From assembly GCA_036782995.1 (NCBI GenBank), contig DAIPXZ010000001.1:1-64000 (forward strand): DNA of 64,000 nucleotides, read 5' to 3'. A program made the position numbers and the translations under genes. The notes beneath the pieces are model-generated. The model ran no database searches. It was given only the letters and a program-made list of their open reading frames with translations, and was not told the DNA's origin. The DNA comes from Bacillota bacterium. Lineage in GTDB: Bacteria > Bacillota > Clostridia > Saccharofermentanales > Saccharofermentanaceae. Shown in pieces: positions 26,765-57,304 of this stretch (positions are counted from its first letter, which is position 1; every line of letters starts with the position of its first letter).

Positions 26765-28240
26765 TTATGCTTTCGTAACGGTAGCTGCAGATGATGTTTC
26801 CGCAATCGCTTCGCCAGCTCCCGCCAAATCAGCGGCATCGGCAACATTTTTCGCATTTACAGCAGAAGTATCCATCTTCTTTCCTAAGTAATCAGGAAGC
26901 TGCATACCTGCCATCTCAAAGATTTCATTCATCGGAGGCACGCTCTTCATAAGTCCGGATACAAAGTTCGCTGTGGAGCTTTTGCCGTCGCCATTGCTTC
27001 CTGCGCCGCTGTCCCAAACAGTAACCTTGTCGATCTTCAAGTCGCGGATTGCTTCGACCTGAATCTTCATCAAGGCCTCCATCTTATCGGCGAGCATGAG
27101 CATCATAGCATCTTTCGCATTGCCACCAGCAGCATCGACAATTTTCTCGAAACCAGCAGCTTGCTTGGTCAAAATCTCTTGCATACCACGAGCTTCTGCT
27201 TCCATCTTTGCATAGATAGCACTTGCTTCACCAACGGCTTGACGGCGAATTCTTTCACCTTCTGCTTCAGCAGCAAGCTCGATTTCACGTTTCTGAATCT
27301 CTGCCTTTACGATAACATCAGCTTCGAGTGTTGCTTTCTCACGAGCAGAACGAGAAAGCTCAGCTTCTTTTTCTGCAAGATATGCTTCTTCGAGGGCTTT
27401 AGCGGCTTGTACCTTTTCTGCAGCGATTGCGATACGCATCGACTCAGCAGCCTTCTCACGACGAAGCGCTTCGGATTGTGCAACTTCAATCTTCGCAGTG
27501 TTTTCACCTTGGATTGCGAGAGAGTTCGCAGATGCAACCTCGATACGCTGATCCTTCTGAGCAATCGCTTCACCAATAGAACCGTCGCGCTCTTTTTCAG
27601 CAACGTTCTTCTTCGCATCGTTGATTGCTTTTGCGGCAGCTTCTTTACCAAGAGCGGAGATATATCCGGATTCATCACTGATATCAGTAACGTTAACGTT
27701 AATCAAGCGAAGACCGATTTTCTTCAATTCTGTTTCCACGTTGCGGGAAACTGCTTCGAGGAACTTATCACGGTCGGTGTTGATTTCTTCGATGTCCATC
27801 GTTGCAATAACCAAACGAAGCTGACCGAAAATAATATCCTTCGCAAGGTCCTGAATGTCAACTAAATGAAGTCCGAGAAGACGCTCAGCTGCGTTTTGCA
27901 TAACGCCTTGTTCTGTCGAAATACCGACGGTAAAAATCGAAGGTACGTCAATACGAATGTTCTGACGAGAAAGAGCGCTCTTTAAGTCAACCGAGATAGA
28001 AATTGGTGTCAAATCGAGATAAGCATAAGATTGTATAATCGGCCATACAAAAGATGCACCACCATGAATACAACGAGAAGATCTTGTCGATCCATCCGTA
28101 TTTTTACCGACTTTACCATAGATGACCATGATGCGGTCAGAAGGGCACTTTCTAAAACGAGAAAGGAAAATCAGTAAGCAGGTAAATGCCAACACAGCAA
28201 CAATGATAAGAACAACGAGTACTTCAAAATCAAATGGCAT
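26765..28240 (-). CDS. flotillin-family (SPFH/band-7) protein, FloT/YuaG-like
   Basis: 491 aa. It has an N-terminal TM, an SPFH domain, then a long Ala/Glu-rich coiled-coil region (EAAAKAINDAKKNVAEKE...AEKEAELSRSAREKATLEADV...). Confidence 0.9.
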   Translation of the reverse strand: MPFDFEVLVVLIIVAVLAFTCLLIFLSRFRKCPSDRIMVIYGKVGKNTDGSTRSSRCIHGGASFVWPIIQSYAYLDLTPISISVDLKSALSRQNIRIDVPSIFTVGISTEQGVMQNAAERLLGLHLVDIQDLAKDIIFGQLRLVIATMDIEEINTDRDKFLEAVSRNVETELKKIGLRLINVNVTDISDESGYISALGKEAAAKAINDAKKNVAEKERDGSIGEAIAQKDQRIEVASANSLAIQGENTAKIEVAQSEALRREKAAESMRIAIAAEKVQAAKALEEAYLAEKEAELSRSAREKATLEADVIVKAEIQKREIELAAEAEGERIRRQAVGEASAIYAKMEAEARGMQEILTKQAAGFEKIVDAAGGNAKDAMMLMLADKMEALMKIQVEAIRDLKIDKVTVWDSGAGSNGDGKSSTANFVSGLMKSVPPMNEIFEMAGMQLPDYLGKKMDTSAVNAKNVADAADLAGAGEAIAETSSAATVTKA

Positions 28241-28256
28241 AGTATAATCCTCCTAT

Positions 28257-29252
28257 TTATTGTTTGGTTACGATCAGAGTATTACCACGTGTAATTCCAA
28301 TTACAGTGACAGATGCTCCGGTCGGAATCAACTGTTTATCATCAGTAACCGCATCAAATTCAGTTATTTGTTCTTGAACGGTTACCATGATTTTTCCAGA
28401 ACGCTCACGTGAAGCGGGAATCGGCAGATATGTTTCTCCGCTCTTTCTGAGCGCATACCGTATGTCCATCGTTCCGTCGTCCTGAAGCTTCAGCATCCCC
28501 CACATTGCCAAAGCCATTAAAAACATTGCAGCAAATCCACATATGAAAGCGAGGAAGGATGCCACAATAATGGGCAGACCCGCATGAATAAATATTAACC
28601 CTGTCCATCCGAAGATGCAAGCAAAGGCGATAATCCCCTGCATGGTAAAAAGGCGAAGCCCTGTACCATGTGTCTTGTCTGCAAGGTCGTGATAGACATT
28701 GTCTTGCGGCAGATGCGAGTCATCGATTCCAGCATCCTGTGGAAGTGAATGTGTCATATGAATCGTATCTATATAGATATCGCCAGGTAATGCGCCGGGG
28801 TGTAAAACCTCGACTGGGATATGCCCCCCGAGATCCCCATGCAGGTCCCCTTGAATATCTCCGAAATGTCCGTCAATATTCCCTGCATGAGAATCACCGA
28901 AGTATGCGTCACCCAATTGGGTATTCCCCAAATGAGCGTCTCCCATGGGAGTGTCTCCCATGTGACTTCCGAAGTCCCCCAAATGGCCATCACTAAGGTT
29001 CGTATCCCCTAAGTGAGTCCCCCCCATATGACTCCCGAAATCACCGGAATGACCCCCACCAAAATGAGCATCACCGGCGTGACCGCCTAGGTCAACATCG
29101 TGTCCGCCAAAATCCGGACCCGAATGTGCCGCACCTAAAATGAGTAGAATAGTTTCAAAAAACAGTAGCACTGCACCGACTATACCGATGCACGCATAGA
29201 TTTGTTCTACCAGCTCCATGCTTTCGAACCAATTAATGAACCATGCAAACAT
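28257..29252 (-). CDS. NfeD-like membrane protein with a ~155-aa His/Gly/Asp-rich insert
   Basis: The C-terminal OB-like segment GKIMVTVQEQITEFDAVTDDKQLIPTGASVTVIGITRGNTLIV and its position directly upstream of flotillin match NfeD/YuaF logic. The low-complexity insert spans aa 42-196. Confidence 0.7.
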   Translation of the reverse strand: MFAWFINWFESMELVEQIYACIGIVGAVLLFFETILLILGAAHSGPDFGGHDVDLGGHAGDAHFGGGHSGDFGSHMGGTHLGDTNLSDGHLGDFGSHMGDTPMGDAHLGNTQLGDAYFGDSHAGNIDGHFGDIQGDLHGDLGGHIPVEVLHPGALPGDIYIDTIHMTHSLPQDAGIDDSHLPQDNVYHDLADKTHGTGLRLFTMQGIIAFACIFGWTGLIFIHAGLPIIVASFLAFICGFAAMFLMALAMWGMLKLQDDGTMDIRYALRKSGETYLPIPASRERSGKIMVTVQEQITEFDAVTDDKQLIPTGASVTVIGITRGNTLIVTKQ

Positions 29253-49067: not shown

Positions 49068-50534
49068 TTACAACACCGGCTTTTCGAGTGCATTCTCCAA
49101 TGCATCGATGATGATCTCGATGGTTTTTACGCGGGCATAAAGCTTATCATTGCCTTCAATAATATGCCAGGGCGCATATTCCGTCGATGTTTTCTGTAGC
49201 ATATCATTGACGGCCTCTTCGTATGCATCCCATTTCTCGCGGTTACGCCAATCTTCGTCTGTGATCTTCCATTGCTTTTCAGGTGTTTCTTGGCGTTCGT
49301 TGAAACGAGCAAGCTGGACGTCTTTATCAATTTGAAGCCAAAATTTTATCACGATTGTGCCTTCCGATGCCAACTGATATTCAAATTCATTCATTTCACG
49401 GTAGGCGCGTTTCCATTCCTTTTGATCGCAAAAGCCTTCTATGCGTTCTACCATAACACGCCCGTACCACGTACGGTCAAAAAGTGCTATATGCCCGGTT
49501 TTCGGCATTTTCTCCCAGAAACGCCATAAATAATGGCGATTCTTTTCTGGTGGGGTCGGCGATGCAACAGGATTTACTTCATATCCGCGTGCATCGAGTG
49601 CTTGCGTCACGCGTTTTATGGCACCACCCTTCCCTGCTGCGTCCCATCCTTCAAAAAGCAAGACGACGGGGATGTGGCGGGCGTAGATGTGATTATGAAG
49701 CTCACGCAGACGTTTCTGATCCTTTTTCAGACGCTCCTCGTAGTCTTCGCGGGGTAGCGCAAGAGATAGGTCAACCTCGTGTAGAAGCGGCATAGATATC
49801 GGCTTCGGGAGTTTCGGTACATATTTTGCAACCGCTTTCTTGTCGATTCCGTTGTGCAAACGATCGGAGATGGCGTCGATTAAATAGCGAAGTGCGTAGA
49901 ATTCACTGATAAGTGGTTTTTTCGCTTCGATAACATGCCATGGAGCAAAAGGCGAATCCGTCTTTTCCATTATTTCTTGGTAAGCCGCCTTAACTTCGCA
50001 ATAGTTCTTCGCTTCCCATGCATCATGCTCTGAAACCCGCCATGCGGTTGCTTGGTCAGCGAGCAGGCGATTGAGTCTGCATTTCTGTTCATCTTCATCG
50101 ATATTCAGGAAGATTTTCACTAAAAGATATCCGTTTTCAGTCAATGACCGCTCAAATTGCTTAACAAATTCGATACGACGCTTATATGTATCTGACGTGA
50201 TGCTTCGTTCCAAATTTGAAGTAGCTAGAATTGACGGCCATCCGCTATCTAGGAACGTGAACTTTCCTTGTTCAGGAATGGTTCGAAAATAGCGATAAAG
50301 AAAGTGTCTTCTCGTTTCTTCCGGACTCGGACGATCCATAGAACAGACGCGATAAAAGCGCGGATCGATACAAGTAATTAAGCGATTAATCAATGAACCC
50401 TTGCCCGATGCGGCAAAGCCTTCCACGAGAACAAATACTGAAATCCCCGCCTTTTTGATTTCCTGTTGTAGAGTAAGGAGTTCTCCTTGCATTTCTGAAA
50501 TTTCTGCCTTCATCTGCTTTTTTTCTTCACGCAT
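49068..50534 (-). CDS. tandem-domain PPK2-family polyphosphate:nucleotide phosphotransferase
   Basis: Two PPK2 repeats, each with a P-loop-like motif (VLVEGFAASGKGS and LLFEGWDAAGKGG). Start at ATG 50534, behind AAGGAGG. It overlaps the upstream gene stop (ATGCGTGA). Confidence 0.85.
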   Translation of the reverse strand: MREEKKQMKAEISEMQGELLTLQQEIKKAGISVFVLVEGFAASGKGSLINRLITCIDPRFYRVCSMDRPSPEETRRHFLYRYFRTIPEQGKFTFLDSGWPSILATSNLERSITSDTYKRRIEFVKQFERSLTENGYLLVKIFLNIDEDEQKCRLNRLLADQATAWRVSEHDAWEAKNYCEVKAAYQEIMEKTDSPFAPWHVIEAKKPLISEFYALRYLIDAISDRLHNGIDKKAVAKYVPKLPKPISMPLLHEVDLSLALPREDYEERLKKDQKRLRELHNHIYARHIPVVLLFEGWDAAGKGGAIKRVTQALDARGYEVNPVASPTPPEKNRHYLWRFWEKMPKTGHIALFDRTWYGRVMVERIEGFCDQKEWKRAYREMNEFEYQLASEGTIVIKFWLQIDKDVQLARFNERQETPEKQWKITDEDWRNREKWDAYEEAVNDMLQKTSTEYAPWHIIEGNDKLYARVKTIEIIIDALENALEKPVL

Positions 50535-51678
50535 ACGATTGTACCTCCTTGTACTTCTCATCGACTCGATTCATTAATTCGAGTTCATCAAGGATTTCCC
50601 CTTGATATGGGTACGTATTCCTCATGCTCTCGAATTGTTCACGTATGTTTTGGGCGTCATTCGTATTATTGTCCTCGAGTAACGCCTTCGCATATTGATA
50701 GCGCAAAACGGTAGGATTTTCCTTCATCTTCTGAATGAAGTCCATTGTTGTTTTTGATAAAAAAGAGTTCCGTTCATCTTTGGGCTGTTCGGTAAGCAAT
50801 GAAAGGTAGGTTAACTCCATATCGATAAAGGCACCTATTATTCCGCTTCTTGGTATCTCCGTATGATTATGAAGCCACTTTAGTTTTTCATAAGCTTCAT
50901 CTAATCGACCATTGATGATGTAATAGCAACAACTGTTTACGTATTGCGTGGTAATTATTGCTGTCGTCATCTCTTTTTCCGTAGGAAAAAAGTAATTGGC
51001 TTCGTCTATATCTTTCATGCGAGCATCTTCAGCGTATTCCGCAAGTGTAATCATCTGTGTGTAGAATACACGAATCATCAATGGGTTACGTTTACAGGCC
51101 AAGATATTCGCTCCGTCGTTATTCAACATTTTGCCGGAAAACGGAATGCCATTTATTACGGCAGGAATCAACGCCATTGCCGCAGCAGTGATAAAAAACG
51201 CACGGCTAATCGGTGCAATCGGCAAGAGACAGAGTCCGCCAAATATACCGGCACACAACATGTTCATGAGCACTCCGCCGAGTTGATAAAGATTAATCGG
51301 ATTTTTTCCGTTCTCTTGATATAGCGGTGGTTTCATTAAGCATTGACCCGCCGTTCCGGTAAGCTTATATTTCTTGATCGCGAGCTTTCCATTCTTCTTT
51401 ATCCAAACAGTATTGTATACTCGGAAGCTTATAAAAGAATATCCGGAAATCAAGCCCGCAAACAAGTGTCCTAGTTCATGGAGAACAAGTTGAATATTAT
51501 ACAAAACAATGCTGACCATACAAAAGACAAGCGTAACCAAGAAACCATGTGTTCCAATAGAATTCGGATATGCCCCCTTTATGATCGCATTGATTATCAT
51601 CATCGAGCCAAAGTAGATGATTACCAATATTGTGCATATAAGAAAACAATTCACTGCATTGATTTTCTTTGATTCCAT
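50527..51678 (-). CDS. M50/site-2-protease-like polytopic membrane protein with a helical soluble C-terminal domain
   Basis: HELGH at aa 67-71 sits at the end of a TM helix, and a later NNDGANIL resembles the second M50 motif. It has 4-5 TM helices and then ~170 aa of helical, TPR-like sequence. Confidence 0.55.
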   Translation of the reverse strand: MESKKINAVNCFLICTILVIIYFGSMMIINAIIKGAYPNSIGTHGFLVTLVFCMVSIVLYNIQLVLHELGHLFAGLISGYSFISFRVYNTVWIKKNGKLAIKKYKLTGTAGQCLMKPPLYQENGKNPINLYQLGGVLMNMLCAGIFGGLCLLPIAPISRAFFITAAAMALIPAVINGIPFSGKMLNNDGANILACKRNPLMIRVFYTQMITLAEYAEDARMKDIDEANYFFPTEKEMTTAIITTQYVNSCCYYIINGRLDEAYEKLKWLHNHTEIPRSGIIGAFIDMELTYLSLLTEQPKDERNSFLSKTTMDFIQKMKENPTVLRYQYAKALLEDNNTNDAQNIREQFESMRNTYPYQGEILDELELMNRVDEKYKEVQSYA

Positions 51679-51714: not shown

Positions 51715-53187
51715 TTATTCGGAAGACGCATCGGAGGTCGTTTTTTTGAACGGGGAGGGTCCTTCACTGTCAAATTCGGGAATATCCTCCAATCCGATTT
51801 CCAACGCAACGTCCATCGCCGATTTTGCCGGAGCTTTAGGGATATTGCTTCCAAGACTACGATCCGTTGCCGGGAAGAAGCCGGAGCCTCTTCCGAGCTG
51901 TTGACTACGTGCTTGATCAATGGATAGATAGATTTCCGAATGCTTTTCGGGGAGAGGTACAGGGGCACTCGGAATGTTGACTTGCCTTTCCAAGGCAAAT
52001 TTATCACTGTCAACACCATGATACGCTTCTTCAACATTTTTTTGATTTACAACAACCTTGGCTGGCGCAACACGTACATTTCTTTCCATGCGAATCAGAA
52101 CCTTGTCCACAGCATTTTCATTCATCGCTATATCGATTAATGCAGACGAGTTCGGAATGTCGAGGTATGCACGGCATTCCGAAGGACGATAGATGGGGCG
52201 TGAAGACGCAATCCTTCCGTTAACCGCATTCATCAGCCAATGGAATGGCTTTCCCTTCACAGTAGTTTTTATCTGCCAATAAGGGAAGTAGGTTAAGATG
52301 CCAAGGCTTTCCTCGTATTTCGACTGGTCGACATAGGACACAACCGCCGATTCTTTTTCTTCCTCACTAACCCAGATGCCGCGCACCCACAGCTTGATAT
52401 GGGCAATTAAATCATCCATGATTTCCTGACCCGACCGGTTAGGCATGACGAAAATAGCGTTATTCTTATCGACCGAATCAAAGTCTTTGCTCATCGAAAA
52501 GGAATATGGGCCAATATCATCAAACGAATCGTTACTGATATAGTCCGAAGCAGGGATTGGGATGTCGTTAAAGCGGAATTGTCCTCCGACATTTCGATCG
52601 ACATAATAACCATCTGTCGAAGACATCGGACGCATAATAGCCGTGTTCTCGACTCTCTTTTGGTTATCATTTTTGTACGTTGTAGGTACTTTTTCAGCCA
52701 AATTCTTGGTGACAATCGCACTGGTAAATGCTTCATAATCAAAGATATAAACAGGCAAGTACGTTTTCACCATCATTTCAGCGAGCTTGGTGTATTTTCC
52801 GGAAAGAAAGAACTTTTCCTTCATGGATTTTTCAAAAGCTTCCTTCGCTTCGTTCGCATCGACGTAAAATGGTACGATTTGTTGAGCCTTGGGAAAAGGG
52901 TGTTGTTTATTGTCGACCTTCGGCACTCTTTCTTTTCCGCAAACAATACAGGTCGAACGGGCGGAAGATAAATCCGTTTCCGAAAACATTATCGTCTTAC
53001 ATTGAGGACACTCATAAGAATAATAATCTCGCAACGCGCTGTATTCCGGGAAATAAAAACCACCGTCTACCTTTTCCACTTGATTCTCTGGCAAAAGCGG
53101 CGTATGACAAAACACGCATTCGTATTTATCGTGCGTGTTTGTAATAACATTAGCATGACATTTGGGGCATGCAAACGCAATATCCAT
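51715..53187 (-). CDS. double zinc-ribbon protein, uncharacterised family (short paralog, 490 aa)
   Basis: MDIAFACPKC...KYECVFCHT is the first 4-Cys ribbon and YECPQC...CIVCG the second. It shares blocks with the upstream gene. AGGAG SD. No TM or signal peptide. Confidence 0.7.
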   Translation of the reverse strand: MDIAFACPKCHANVITNTHDKYECVFCHTPLLPENQVEKVDGGFYFPEYSALRDYYSYECPQCKTIMFSETDLSSARSTCIVCGKERVPKVDNKQHPFPKAQQIVPFYVDANEAKEAFEKSMKEKFFLSGKYTKLAEMMVKTYLPVYIFDYEAFTSAIVTKNLAEKVPTTYKNDNQKRVENTAIMRPMSSTDGYYVDRNVGGQFRFNDIPIPASDYISNDSFDDIGPYSFSMSKDFDSVDKNNAIFVMPNRSGQEIMDDLIAHIKLWVRGIWVSEEEKESAVVSYVDQSKYEESLGILTYFPYWQIKTTVKGKPFHWLMNAVNGRIASSRPIYRPSECRAYLDIPNSSALIDIAMNENAVDKVLIRMERNVRVAPAKVVVNQKNVEEAYHGVDSDKFALERQVNIPSAPVPLPEKHSEIYLSIDQARSQQLGRGSGFFPATDRSLGSNIPKAPAKSAMDVALEIGLEDIPEFDSEGPSPFKKTTSDASSE

Positions 53188-53256
53188 AACAATTCACTCC
53201 TATCATTCAGACGGTAAGGATGAAAAGTCTTCGTTTGAGAATGCTCGAAAGAATGA

Positions 53257-56200
53257 TTATCTTTCCCGTCTTATCGGTTTCTTGGCAAATGGGCTTGGTC
53301 CATTCGGATCAAACTTCGGAATATCGCTTAACGAACGACGAGCCGCCGCTTCCTCTTCAACGATTCCTTTGCGAATTGGATCCATTCCGCCATATGCTAG
53401 CGATGGGATCGGTCGTTCGCCGCCGTATCTTGGTAATCCTTCATCCTCAGGCGGTCGTGTACCCGTGGCGACCGGTTGTGCTGTTTCTTGCAAAGTTGTT
53501 CCTGTCGGATGTTCTGTCAAATTGCTCTCTTCTACTGTTCTGCTACCAGGACGCAGCATCACCGCAGCCATGTTTGTATTCTCCACATTGATGGTCGATT
53601 CTTTTACCGAAAATGCCGGCAGAACTTCTTCGTCCTGTTCGCGATTGCTTTCTTCGACGTCAGCCGTATGAATGGTCATCGGTACCGAGCGTGTATACTC
53701 AACCGGTTCTTCAACGGGCTGTTCCGCCTTTGGAGCAAATACGGGCGCATCCTCACTTGATGCTTTGAAAGCCGCTTGGACATTGGCCTGACGTGCCGCT
53801 TCTTCTAATGCGCGTCTCTCGCGATATGTGCGTGGACGATCGCTCGAGAATGTAATTGGAGAAGATTCATCCTCGGTGCCACGAACAGAAGTATTTACTG
53901 TTTCATCGAGCGTCGTATTCGGACGTAATGCTGAACCCGGACGTGTTGCGGCCGGTTCATTTGCGGAGGACGAAGAAGTCGATGGCTGTTTATCTTCGTC
54001 AATCGTTAACTCTTCCTTCTGATGTAATGGCATTTCTCCACCGCGGCTTGTTGCTGAATGATCGGCAGCAGCAAGAACACTATTGTTTCTCGGTTTTTCA
54101 ACATTAATTACGATATCTTGTGGCTTTGCAAAACGAGGTTTCGTATCTTCTGGTTCAGGCAATCCCGTTGATGGTGATGCCCATGTCGGAATCGGTCGAT
54201 CACTACGAATTGAACGCTCCCAAATCGGTACGGACTTCGAAGAATTCTCTTCTTGGCTTCTATGTCCACGCATGGCAGGACCACTAGTTGCTTGTGCCGC
54301 CGTCGTTGACGCTTGCGTTTCTTCCTGTGATACGCTTCTGCGCGATGCAAAAGGAGAAATCGAATCTTCCGGTCTTCCCCATGTCGGAGGCGGCGTAATT
54401 GCAGATGAAAGAGGACTACGGCTTACGGAAGACGTATCCGTTTTTGGAGTCGAAGGTGCATTGGTTGCTACCGTCGGACGGCTCGTCGTGGAATCACTAC
54501 GCGTTGACGTTCCAGGACGAGAAGCTGCCCCCGGTCGCGTCGCAGCAACGGATTCACGTGATGTCGTCGGTTCTGATGCCGAAGTCGCTTGCACTGGAGC
54601 TTTATGTTGTAATGTCGAATCTTGTGATGCCGGCACAGACATATTCGGGCGTGGCGGACGCTTTATCTGTCCGTTTTGACCAACAGTTGTAGCGGACGCA
54701 CTTGTTTTTTTTGCCCAGTCGGGTGTCTCTCCCGCTGGCATTTCACCCCAAATTGGTTTGCGTGGCATATGAATTGAATCATCTTCTGATGGTGTTGAAA
54801 CAGAACGAGCCATTTGCGCAAGCGGAGATGGTTCACGCGGAGCAAGAGGCTTCGAAACAGGCTTCGGTGTTGGCAAGACATCTTCGTCTTTCTCAACCAT
54901 AGGAAGTGGCATGTGCTTTTCTTCTTCGATAATCGGAGCCTTCTTCTCCATGAAAGAAAGAGAAAGGTGTTGCTCTTCCTTTTCAAACGTATCAGCGCCG
55001 ACAGGTGTCACTTCTTCCTTCATCGGGAGTGGTTGTGATGTTGTTTTCGGTGTCGTGGCTTTCTTGGCCTGCAAAACGATATCATCCGCTTTCTCAACCG
55101 CCGATTTAGTCTTACGTGACTTATCGGGTACGATATCATCCGCAGATTCAACGATGCCCTTCTTGGTAGTCGACTTTAATGAATCATCGGTATCATTGTC
55201 TGCACGTGATACAGTAGTCGTCGCGTTTTTCTCTTCCGTACTCGGTTGTTCCATCGCGGCTTCACGACGCTTCAGCTCTCTAAGTGCGCTGAGTGGCAAG
55301 GAATTGATTGTCTCGGCATCCAAATCAGCAAGAGTCAAGCCATCCAGATTCATCAATGGAGATGCTATTTGCGTAGACTGTACATCCGACATATTCGAAA
55401 TATATGCGGACTCCCACGCTGGATGGTTTTGTTCCATAGTCTTCGACGAGGAAAGAGTCGATGCCGGAGCTTGAACGGCTTCGATTGGTTGCTCTTCTTC
55501 ACCATTCACCTTCGCCTTCATGCTGGATACTTTCTTTTCCGGAACATGTGCACCAAATGCGTTCACGCTTGCGTCTTGCGGGCGATCCCATACCGGTACC
55601 TGTGTTTCTTTTTTCTCGATGGCAGGCTTCTTTGTTCGAACGGTACGATTGCTGTTTGGAACAGCGACCTCCGTCGGCTTCGAGTTCTTCGCCCACGCCG
55701 GTGCTTCCACTGCAGCTTTCATCTCGCCCGGATTTTCCTTGGCTGCTGCTTTAATGGCAGCTGGTCGAGTAATCGGTTCCAGTTTCTTTTTCTGAGGCAT
55801 CTTCGTTAAATCGCTAATATTGGTCACAATCGGAATATCAAGAAGTGGCGCACCCTCTGGGCGATTTGCCGCTTCAGCACGACGTTTTTCCATTGCCTCA
55901 GCGCGTTTCTTCGCCTCTTCATCTGCCTTAATGTCTGCCTCCGTTGCGGTGTGAACCATCAACTGCGCATCAAAATCATCCGGCTTCTTTGGTTTTCTTG
56001 TTTTCGGCTTCTCAAAGAAGGAGTAATCAAGAATTTCGTGCGCTGGATTATATAGATCGAACTCAAAGTGTGTGTCCTTCAATGCCGTACAGCGGTCCAT
56101 ATTGGCATATTCGTGATATCCGGTCTTGTCATTTTGTGATGCGACCTTCGCCATCGGAATATTTGCCTCGACGACACCGTTTTGAGCATTCATGGCATAG

Positions 56201-57183
56201 TGGAACTCTCTTCCTAAGTATTCGCCTCGCATAGCCCAAATCGGTAAGAGGACAAGTTCTCCGATACCAAGTGGATAATCGGTCTTATCAGAATAGAAGG
56301 AAATATCGTATTGCACAGAATGTGCGTCATATATCATTTGACGGGTCCATTTCTTGATGCGCCCCATGAACTCTTGCATCATTGAAATCGCATCTTTATA
56401 TGTCGCTACGACCGGAACATCACCCAATGCCGTTGTCGTAACCGGGACCATCTTAGAAAAATCATATGGTTGAATGTTGCGAACCGTATTGTCAGGTAAA
56501 CATCCAGTCGCGTCAAAAGGTACGCCCATCCATGATAAAACACCACCTGTGATTCTTTCGGTCGGTAGTTCCTGCGTCTCTTTGACACCGCGAAGGCTAT
56601 TATTAATCTTTTTAAAAGAAGAACGAAGCGGCATCATCAGCTCTTTTAATTGTTCCGGAGCCGCCGTGTCCAAGATTGATTGCGTAGGAATATGCTTCAA
56701 CATTGCGGTGAGTCGCACGTTCGCTAATACTTCGTAGTTAAATATCCAACACGGAACATAGACCTTCTTTAGAAGGGCCTTGTTCTCATCAGTTACCAGT
56801 GCACGTCCGACAGCCGAGTTATTTCGACAGTATTCTTCAAAAACGCTTTCCGCTTTTTGTCGATTGTAGGAAAACAGAATCATTCGACGTGGCATCGCCC
56901 CTAGCGCCGGGCCCTTATCCGTAAGCTTCGAAACACCACAAAGTGGGCAATCCATCTTTTGACCATCTGCTACTCTTGCGAATACCTGACCACCGCATTC
57001 TTCACAGGTAAATGAATGATAAGCCTTTTCGTCCCATGCTTCACTAACGTAATATCCGCCTTCCAATTCAAGAACTTCATCTGCCGGTGTTAAATCGGTA
57101 TGGCAAAAACAGCAACGATATTTCTTCGACTCATCAAAAATCAAATCCGCCGAGCAATTCGGACAATGAAATGCTATATCCAT
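53257..57183 (-). CDS. double zinc-ribbon protein, uncharacterised family (long paralog, 1308 aa, with a ~915-aa disordered C-terminal region)
   Basis: The start is set at MDIAFHCPNC (ATG 57183) by homology with the paralog and an upstream AGGAGG. The two ribbons are CPNC...CCFC and CEEC...CPLC. From about aa 421 of the track ORF the sequence is low-complexity and rich in P/S/T/A/E/K. Confidence 0.7.
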   Translation of the reverse strand: MDIAFHCPNCSADLIFDESKKYRCCFCHTDLTPADEVLELEGGYYVSEAWDEKAYHSFTCEECGGQVFARVADGQKMDCPLCGVSKLTDKGPALGAMPRRMILFSYNRQKAESVFEEYCRNNSAVGRALVTDENKALLKKVYVPCWIFNYEVLANVRLTAMLKHIPTQSILDTAAPEQLKELMMPLRSSFKKINNSLRGVKETQELPTERITGGVLSWMGVPFDATGCLPDNTVRNIQPYDFSKMVPVTTTALGDVPVVATYKDAISMMQEFMGRIKKWTRQMIYDAHSVQYDISFYSDKTDYPLGIGELVLLPIWAMRGEYLGREFHYAMNAQNGVVEANIPMAKVASQNDKTGYHEYANMDRCTALKDTHFEFDLYNPAHEILDYSFFEKPKTRKPKKPDDFDAQLMVHTATEADIKADEEAKKRAEAMEKRRAEAANRPEGAPLLDIPIVTNISDLTKMPQKKKLEPITRPAAIKAAAKENPGEMKAAVEAPAWAKNSKPTEVAVPNSNRTVRTKKPAIEKKETQVPVWDRPQDASVNAFGAHVPEKKVSSMKAKVNGEEEQPIEAVQAPASTLSSSKTMEQNHPAWESAYISNMSDVQSTQIASPLMNLDGLTLADLDAETINSLPLSALRELKRREAAMEQPSTEEKNATTTVSRADNDTDDSLKSTTKKGIVESADDIVPDKSRKTKSAVEKADDIVLQAKKATTPKTTSQPLPMKEEVTPVGADTFEKEEQHLSLSFMEKKAPIIEEEKHMPLPMVEKDEDVLPTPKPVSKPLAPREPSPLAQMARSVSTPSEDDSIHMPRKPIWGEMPAGETPDWAKKTSASATTVGQNGQIKRPPRPNMSVPASQDSTLQHKAPVQATSASEPTTSRESVAATRPGAASRPGTSTRSDSTTSRPTVATNAPSTPKTDTSSVSRSPLSSAITPPPTWGRPEDSISPFASRRSVSQEETQASTTAAQATSGPAMRGHRSQEENSSKSVPIWERSIRSDRPIPTWASPSTGLPEPEDTKPRFAKPQDIVINVEKPRNNSVLAAADHSATSRGGEMPLHQKEELTIDEDKQPSTSSSSANEPAATRPGSALRPNTTLDETVNTSVRGTEDESSPITFSSDRPRTYRERRALEEAARQANVQAAFKASSEDAPVFAPKAEQPVEEPVEYTRSVPMTIHTADVEESNREQDEEVLPAFSVKESTINVENTNMAAVMLRPGSRTVEESNLTEHPTGTTLQETAQPVATGTRPPEDEGLPRYGGERPIPSLAYGGMDPIRKGIVEEEAAARRSLSDIPKFDPNGPSPFAKKPIRRER

Positions 57184-57275: not shown

Positions 57276-57304
57276 AATATAAAGGGTGAACGGATTATTG
57301 TCAA
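57276..57304 (-). promoter_or_regulatory. near-consensus promoter TTGACA-17-TATATT upstream of the zinc-ribbon operon
   Basis: Minus strand reads aataaTTGACAataatccgttcaccctTTATATTatag. The -35 is at 57299-57304 and the -10 at 57276-57281, about 90 nt before ATG 57183. Confidence 0.45.

Follow-up and report, generated by a model that had tools for sequence, protein, structure and literature searches.

The window analyzed here is a 64-kb stretch of DNA (64,000 nucleotides; positions 1 to 64,000 of contig DAIPXZ010000001.1, GenBank assembly GCA_036782995.1) from a bacterium of the phylum Bacillota, in the clostridial family Saccharofermentanaceae. Its minus strand carries two adjacent genes, A (53257..57183) and B (51715..53187), whose products are divergent paralogs that end in a shared peptide, DIP(K/E)FD(P/S)xGPSPF. 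This terminal peptide is a selected C-terminal short linear motif of one Clostridia lineage (Oscillospiraceae-like, from gut and rumen), and the tail it forms is a new, lineage-specific variant within a known family, which appears to be that of the Bacillus subtilis envelope-stress protein YdjG/SamG. The tail may act as a docking hook on the flexible tether of a YdjG/SamG-type envelope-stress module, with an external cytoplasmic effector as its receptor; a probability of roughly 0.4 is assigned to this reading, which rests on analogy with the B. subtilis system.

Conservation and position of the tail motif

The heads of A and B are 25% identical over 351 amino acids (BLASTP, E 3e-38), and beyond the heads the tail is the sole other segment with a significant match (13/24 residues identical, E 2e-4). 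The tail of A, DIPKFDPNGPSPF, is encoded at 53287..53325 on the minus strand and is followed by AKKPIRRER and the stop codon; that of B, DIPEFDSEGPSPF, is encoded at 51748..51786 on the same strand and is followed by KKTTSDASSE and the stop codon. The first-pass annotation of this DNA had placed the shared ending at exactly these codons. Its description of the preceding sequence as unrelated is right for A and B within the window and wrong among B-type orthologs, whose C-terminal half is conserved. At six identical tail residues A and B use different synonymous codons, which rules out recent A-B gene conversion as the source of the match; the likeness is therefore maintained because selection acts on the peptide.

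An exhaustive hidden Markov model search of 1.84 billion representative proteins used a profile of the A and B heads only. This search yielded 3426 relatives at E <= 1e-3; word-indexed searches for homologs returned almost no matches, whether the query was B, the A head, or a profile of 15 sequences. All seven of the closest complete homologs found by the head-only profile carry the tail motif; they comprise three A-type proteins (1311-1440 amino acids), three B-type proteins (519-524 amino acids), and one 529-amino-acid protein with transmembrane (TM) segments. The motif likewise recurs, with conservative variants, in every complete ortholog taken from the loci (11 A-type, 16 B-type, and one fused protein of the P0011 type). 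None of the approximately 140 more distant head-family members examined has it.

Back-translation of the motif gave a degenerate DNA pattern (about 37 bits), with which one genome per species (185,579 species) and a metagenome collection were searched. Forty loci match in the genome scan, 37 of which are family-associated and come from Clostridia metagenome-assembled genomes from rumen and gut (Mageeibacillus, Oscillospiraceae, "Clostridiales"); the metagenome scan adds 29 matching loci (22 family-associated), and viral contigs scanned with the same pattern give no match. The motif lies 1-10 residues from the stop codon in all family-associated cases except one; in the 10 chance matches, which come from other phyla and stand outside the family, it lies 21-595 amino acids from the stop. 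The exception is L073 (436-2643, minus strand), where a B-type open reading frame (ORF) runs 216 amino acids beyond the tail motif, owing to a lost stop codon or an assembly error, probably the latter.

Fifty distinct tails give the consensus [GAP]-[LIM]-x-[DG]-[LIM]-P-[ED]-[YF]-D-P-x-G-P-[SN]-P-F-[KR]-[KP], in which the core DPxGPxPF is invariant and is followed by 1-10 mostly basic residues. Some of these positions are fixed by construction of the search pattern; the core is confirmed independently by the homologs found through their heads and by second copies found by adjacency (GLSDYDPDGPSPF, GMPEFDP.., GLPDLDP..). The "DIP" start seen in the window is uncommon, as Ile occurs in only 6/50 tails and Asp is replaced by Gly in 14/50. 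A-type and B-type tails have distinct flavors, AIR[GD]LP[DE][FY]DPDGPSPFKP and GL[SA]D[LMI]PE[YF]DPxGPNPFKK, respectively. Every tail found resides in the same polypeptide as a head-family member or in the product of an adjacent gene, and apart from the chance matches far from a stop codon no unrelated protein with the motif was found in the genome and metagenome scans. Because the peptide is conserved at about 60 loci, in three architectures, in a strictly C-terminal position, and despite synonymous divergence, it is judged to be under selection, as the first-pass annotation had proposed in calling it a docking motif.

Proteins that carry the tail

In the first of the three architectures, seen in basal relatives, a canonical membrane-anchored head protein of about 340 amino acids is followed by a small protein of about 170-190 amino acids encoded by an overlapping or closely abutting ORF. 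The small protein starts with a basic N-terminus, has two TM segments and then a juxtamembrane segment that is also basic, and continues through a linker of about 90-130 amino acids to the tail, which is flanked by basic residues and predicted to be cytoplasmic. Two loci (L003 and L056) have two such head/small-protein gene pairs each, in tandem. In the second architecture, head and small protein are fused in one ORF (P0011, L040, L046). The third is the A-B tandem, which lacks TM segments, occurs in about 20 species, and has an AEC-type permease gene upstream; in both A-type and B-type proteins the motif closes a disordered linker. When the C-terminal halves of B-type proteins are compared with the small proteins by hhalign, the tail alone aligns (E ~1e-12), with a weak second link (E 1e-3, probability 19%) between B-type "VNYRTYMxD" and the "V[ND]xxTY[LIV][ND]" of the small-protein juxtamembrane segment.

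An apparently decayed copy is present in two assemblies. At L002:1-520 and L063:1-570 the head ORF halts midway (..EPFNYDQLEPFAG, then a stop codon), and the tail DPLADLPEYDPNGPNPFVG closes a 45-amino-acid ORF read in a different frame; the arrangement is consistent with a pseudogene produced by deletion or frameshift.

Gene A encodes a soluble A-type, YdjG-like protein of 1308 amino acids, counted from its MDIAF start, that comprises a head, a disordered linker of about 930 amino acids, and the tail. By alignment, the head (amino acids 1-350; 56134..57183, minus strand) consists of two C4 zinc ribbons and an alpha/beta domain, and the linker (amino acids 351-1270; 53374..56133, minus strand) is rich in Ala, Ser, Pro, Glu, and Thr by composition. 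A-type orthologs are 1300-1450 amino acids long. The 490-amino-acid product of gene B is a soluble, divergent B-type paralog of A, with a head of 335 amino acids (52183..53187, minus strand) followed by a C-terminal region (51787..52182, minus strand); it is 28-31% identical to other B-type orthologs and lacks about 40 amino acids of their C-terminal region. Neither A nor B has a TM segment after the head (no hydrophobic 19-amino-acid window; maximum Kyte-Doolittle score 0.85-1.0), and the A-type orthologs P0004-6, with a maximum of about 1.0, have none either.

Probable relationship of the heads to YdjG/SamG

Throughout A, B, and their relatives the zinc ribbons keep the cysteine ligands CPxC..CxFC and CxxC..CxxC without exception; the relatives match the Pfam family Zn_Ribbon_TF, and the best fold match of the alpha/beta domain, a weak one, is YpeB. 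A typical family member has about 350 amino acids and ends in NGQTGK..LP.S followed by a TM segment. This C-terminal TM segment is found in 141 of the 152 family proteins examined and not in A or B. Directly downstream of two canonical relatives (P0153 and P0154) lies a TPM-domain gene that overlaps by 8 nucleotides, and several members of the family contain a fused TPM domain. The N-terminus of B. subtilis YdjG, as encoded by a published primer (MIISYKCPNC; PMC8581546), fits the N-terminal motif of the family. On this evidence, A and B are probably TM-less derivatives of the YdjG/SamG family, an assignment in which B. subtilis YdjG itself is compared only by its primer-encoded N-terminus.

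The likeness to the pspA-ydjGHI/samGHI envelope-stress operon of B. subtilis lies in the two N-terminal zinc ribbons and, more tentatively, the alpha/beta domain of the heads. Canonical relatives also share the YdjG/YdjH layout of one C-terminal TM segment and an overlapping downstream TPM-domain gene, and the small tail-bearing protein appears to occupy the YdjH/SamH (TPM) position of the canonical systems. Unlike the YdjG/YdjH system, A and B have long disordered linkers, no TM segment, no TPM partner, and no pspA or ydjI nearby; they have lost their membrane segments. The gene downstream of A in the window is B, and that downstream of B encodes an M50-like protein, in place of a TPM-domain gene. 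Canonical TPM partners and fusions have Gly-rich, basic ends, where the lineage described here has the DPxGPxPF tail instead.

A Gly-rich end of the form ...[RK]x0-1F-COOH is found in seven longer family members, several of them TPM-fused (P0015, P0037, P0050, P0087, P0097, P0110, and P0139). Endings include GGGGRSF, GGGRGF, GGGKF, and GGRKF, and also ...RSF or ...RGF on TPM fusions; the published ydjH reverse primer decodes to ..SRGSF (PMC8581546). The Gly-rich ...F-COOH end may be a different and more widespread C-terminal signature of canonical systems. At two loci (L041:5278-7921 and L044:118-3139), a canonical YdjG-like gene follows a SIR2-family gene and is itself followed by a TPM-domain gene with an 8-nucleotide overlap. 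The TPM-domain product there has a Gly/His/Arg-rich tail, and no pspA or band-7 gene is near in these Clostridia.

Upstream linear motifs and predicted structure

Short motifs are also found upstream of the tail. All eight Trp residues of the A linker (amino acids 497, 532, 590, 812, 823, 935, 988, and 1001) stand in conserved P-x-W-[AGEDS]-[KRE] contexts, and at matching positions the A-type orthologs have APSWAKAVTPP, KPIWER, RWGEMPEA.ETPxWAKPQ, and VPIWERVP...PxPxWG. As read from the sequence, the P-x-W motifs are a second, repeated linear motif of A-type proteins. The B-type C-terminal half is well conserved among orthologs and contains, ahead of the tail, several linear motifs: NYRTYMxD..AS.I..EM.LNEMSADKSLL.LE, PSAPVPLPxEHSxLYxMK, and RSLGRGxRLPEKPxDRxVGNE. 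In B itself, the B-type alignment identifies family-conserved motifs such as PSAPVPLPEKHSEIYL and LGRG.

In AlphaFold2 (AF2) models, the C-terminal region of B has a predicted local distance difference test (pLDDT) score of 40-67. The tail forms a bump in this score, at 61-65 versus 40-51 in B and at 64 versus 33-39 in P0007, with the tail covered by five sequences in the input alignment. Upstream motifs that are as conserved as the tail keep a low pLDDT.

Candidate binding partners of the tail

In B. subtilis, PspA and the soluble SPFH protein YdjI/SamI are recruited by the membrane anchors YdjG and YdjH (PMC8581546; bioRxiv 10.64898/2026.02.06.704340). In bacterial two-hybrid assays, YdjH interacts with PspA and YdjI, and YdjG interacts with YdjH (PMC8581546). 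If the tail is a docking hook, it would have been inherited from the protein in the YdjH position and would bind, as an extended peptide rich in Pro and Gly, a folded protein of the envelope-stress module in the cytoplasm. The YdjG-like head would thereby be coupled to this protein, as would, in A, the long linker with its P-x-W motifs. The most likely receptor would be a separate soluble effector encoded elsewhere, a choice favored because YdjH binds YdjI and PspA and because family-specific tails usually work in this way.

Several points weigh against an external effector of a YdjG/SamG-type module. The YdjG assignment relies on the domain architecture, the operon setting, and a fold match that is itself weak, and homology of the B-type NYRTYM segment to the juxtamembrane region of the small, YdjH-position protein is suggestive and makes a weak link. 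No PspA or YdjI-type gene was found in the 64-kb window or beside related loci; the sole SPFH gene in the window belongs to an ordinary NfeD-flotillin pair 23 kb away. The neighbors in the window and at related loci include no identified candidate for the receptor gene. The pattern scan requires the exact 12-residue consensus, such that divergent carriers in other families could escape it, and the tail pLDDT is short of confident.

The main rival is that the tail docks on a head, either that of its own chain (autoinhibition) or that of the sister paralog (A tail on B head and the reverse), a mode of binding that would link A and B into assemblies or multivalent networks. No component other than the head accompanies every tail, on the same chain or from an adjacent gene, and neither of the two large collections contains an unrelated tail carrier. 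Tandem paralog pairs are also the rule, both in the A-B arrangement here and in the doubled head/small-protein pairs of L003 and L056. The conserved A-type and B-type flavors would fit paralogous receptor sites, the two-hybrid contact between YdjG and YdjH (PMC8581546) would fit a head-tail contact, and the pLDDT bump appears in both AF2 models. However, that bump reaches only about 60-65, and type-specific flavors could merely tune affinity for a single receptor. Moreover, the family-exclusive tails best known from other systems (the FtsZ C-terminal conserved peptide (CTC), the SSB tip, and the ESCRT-III MIM) mostly serve external partners. Docking on a head is considered unlikely, and less so than any explanation discussed below.

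A broader proposal, considerably less probable, is that A and B are soluble, multivalent, disordered scaffolds derived from a membrane-anchored SamG/SamH-type stress sensor, as a bacterial counterpart of eukaryotic linear-motif adaptors, or that they form a condensate-like A-B assembly by head-to-tail contacts. As scaffolds, they would recruit several partners through the terminal DPxGPxPF hook, the P-x-W motifs of A (7-8 in number), and the motifs inside B; the partners might be membrane-remodeling or division proteins (e.g., PspA/ESCRT-III, SPFH proteins, SepF, FtsA). Eukaryotic endocytic adaptors offer an analogy, and no more than that, in their long disordered scaffolds with short aromatic/Pro/Asp motifs (NPF, DPF/DPW, FxDxF); the counterparts here are the P-x-W repeats and the terminal [YF]DPxGP[NS]PF, which often contains NPF. 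Unlike those adaptors, A and B belong to a bacterial host, in which EH or appendage domains are not expected.

The first-pass annotation had suggested that the tail mimics the FtsZ CTC or the SSB tip and competes for FtsA, SepF, EzrA, or a replication hub protein. The D-[LIM]-P-x-[FY] half of the motif does match the D, P, and F reported as fully conserved in the FtsZ CTC, which in Gram-positive bacteria is followed by a basic end of 1-10 residues (PMC9939409). Because of these residues and the basic end, the first half of the tail and its layout resemble FtsZ: the FtsZ "grappling hook" (CTC plus C-terminal variable region, CTV) likewise consists of a globular domain, a long disordered linker, a conserved peptide, and a short basic end. 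Mislocalized peptidoglycan synthesis in ydjG and ydjH mutants under alkaline stress (PMC8581546) could be cited in favor of FtsZ mimicry as well. Yet the carriers are zinc-ribbon or small TM proteins rather than tubulin-like GTPases, and the residues on which the comparison was built are the least conserved of the tail, with Gly for Asp and the rarity of Ile as given above. The FtsZ CTC has 8 residues (DIPxFLR-like) and, in E. coli and B. subtilis, has Leu followed by Arg/Lys where the tail has an invariant Asp-Pro after F/Y; the DPxGPxPF block, with its added GPxPF, has no counterpart in FtsZ or SSB. No FtsZ in the scanned genomes has the full motif, and no division or replication gene is near.

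The SSB tip (..DDDIPF-COOH) resembles the tail in its acidic residue and Ile/Leu-Pro-x-Phe at the end of a disordered region. SSB proteins terminate in ..IPF. The tail, by contrast, has its first aromatic residue at an internal position, and in 50/50 cases 1-10 residues come after the PF; there is also no DDD run and no OB fold. Mimicry of either FtsZ or SSB is considered highly improbable.

Equally improbable is a role in controlling turnover of the scaffold, with the tail as a C-terminal degron or as a signal recognized by a protease (of Clp or Ctp type, or the adjacent M50-like protein). Its strict near-terminal position would suit such a signal, as would the HExxH M50B-like membrane protein encoded 36 nucleotides downstream of B in this organism. 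However, none of the 40 genome-scan loci has the M50-like gene, a variable extension of 1-10 residues speaks against recognition of a free C-terminus, and an acidic, Pro/Gly-rich motif followed by Lys-Lys is unlike the known bacterial C-terminal degrons (e.g., LAA or non-polar ends). The least credible proposal, direct binding of membrane or lipid in replacement of the TM anchor that A and B lack and that 141/152 family proteins have, is disfavored by the presence of the same tail on TM-bearing proteins, about 90-130 residues past the last TM segment, and by the acidic, Pro/Gly-rich, non-amphipathic character of the motif.

Genomic context

The MDIAF codon is taken as the start of A on the basis of an upstream AGGAGG ribosome-binding site and a putative sigma-70-like promoter (57276..57304, minus strand), read from the sequence as TTGACA, a 17-nucleotide spacer, and TATATT; the mechanical ORF listing opens at an earlier TTG.

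Downstream of B, a co-directional gene for the M50B-like HExxH membrane protein (50527..51678, minus strand; weak Pfam M50B match) is followed by one for a two-domain PPK2, a polyphosphate:AMP phosphotransferase (49068..50561, minus strand). Together they form a tight co-directional array (49068-51678, minus strand), with a hairpin resembling an intrinsic terminator 3' of PPK2, and they stand between B and a GH1 gene. In relatives, homologs of the GH1 and GT4 genes of the window lie downstream of B, and the AEC permease gene lies upstream of A. A phmmer search found no homolog of the M50-like protein in the 40 genome-scan loci, and PPK2 occurs in only three of them, about 6 kb off and not adjacent to B. 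Both proteins had been put forward earlier as neighboring partners of the tail. Because they are absent from the B-GH1 position in orthologous loci, they are rejected as conserved, co-evolving partners, and the pair, which is outside the conserved unit, appears to be an organism-specific insertion.

When the main ORFs of the window (150 amino acids or more) were scanned against Pfam, no match emerged to PspA, a YdjI-type SPFH protein, a TPM domain, FtsZ, FtsA, or SepF, and no division or replication gene was found in the window. The NfeD-flotillin pair (26765-29252, minus strand) is a classical operon in which an NfeD-like membrane protein, whose long repeat (GGHxGDxH...) is rich in His, Gly, and Asp, is encoded upstream of a FloT-like flotillin (26765-28240; Band_7, 491 amino acids). 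A search of the neighborhoods of small-protein systems turned up only housekeeping genes (e.g., AlaRS, HIT, ABC ATPases). Downstream of some such systems, at L005:667-6408, L010, and L011, are 4-5 tandem paralogs of about 450 amino acids, all of which have a signal peptide and a linker rich in Pro and Thr.

Significance

YdjG/SamG and YdjH/SamH are widespread in Firmicutes, and how this membrane pair signals to the cytoplasm is obscure. An invariant cytoplasmic peptide on the protein in the YdjH position, kept after loss of the membrane anchor, offers a concrete starting point for identifying the protein with which the module interacts in the cytoplasm. The architectures also document successive steps by which a two-gene membrane complex gave rise, by way of a fusion, to soluble proteins 1300-1450 amino acids long, with about 70% disorder and several linear motifs each, a build that is unusual in bacteria. 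The interest of the tail lies mainly in this access to SamGH-type signaling and in how it illustrates a bacterial scaffold with abundant disorder and linear motifs.

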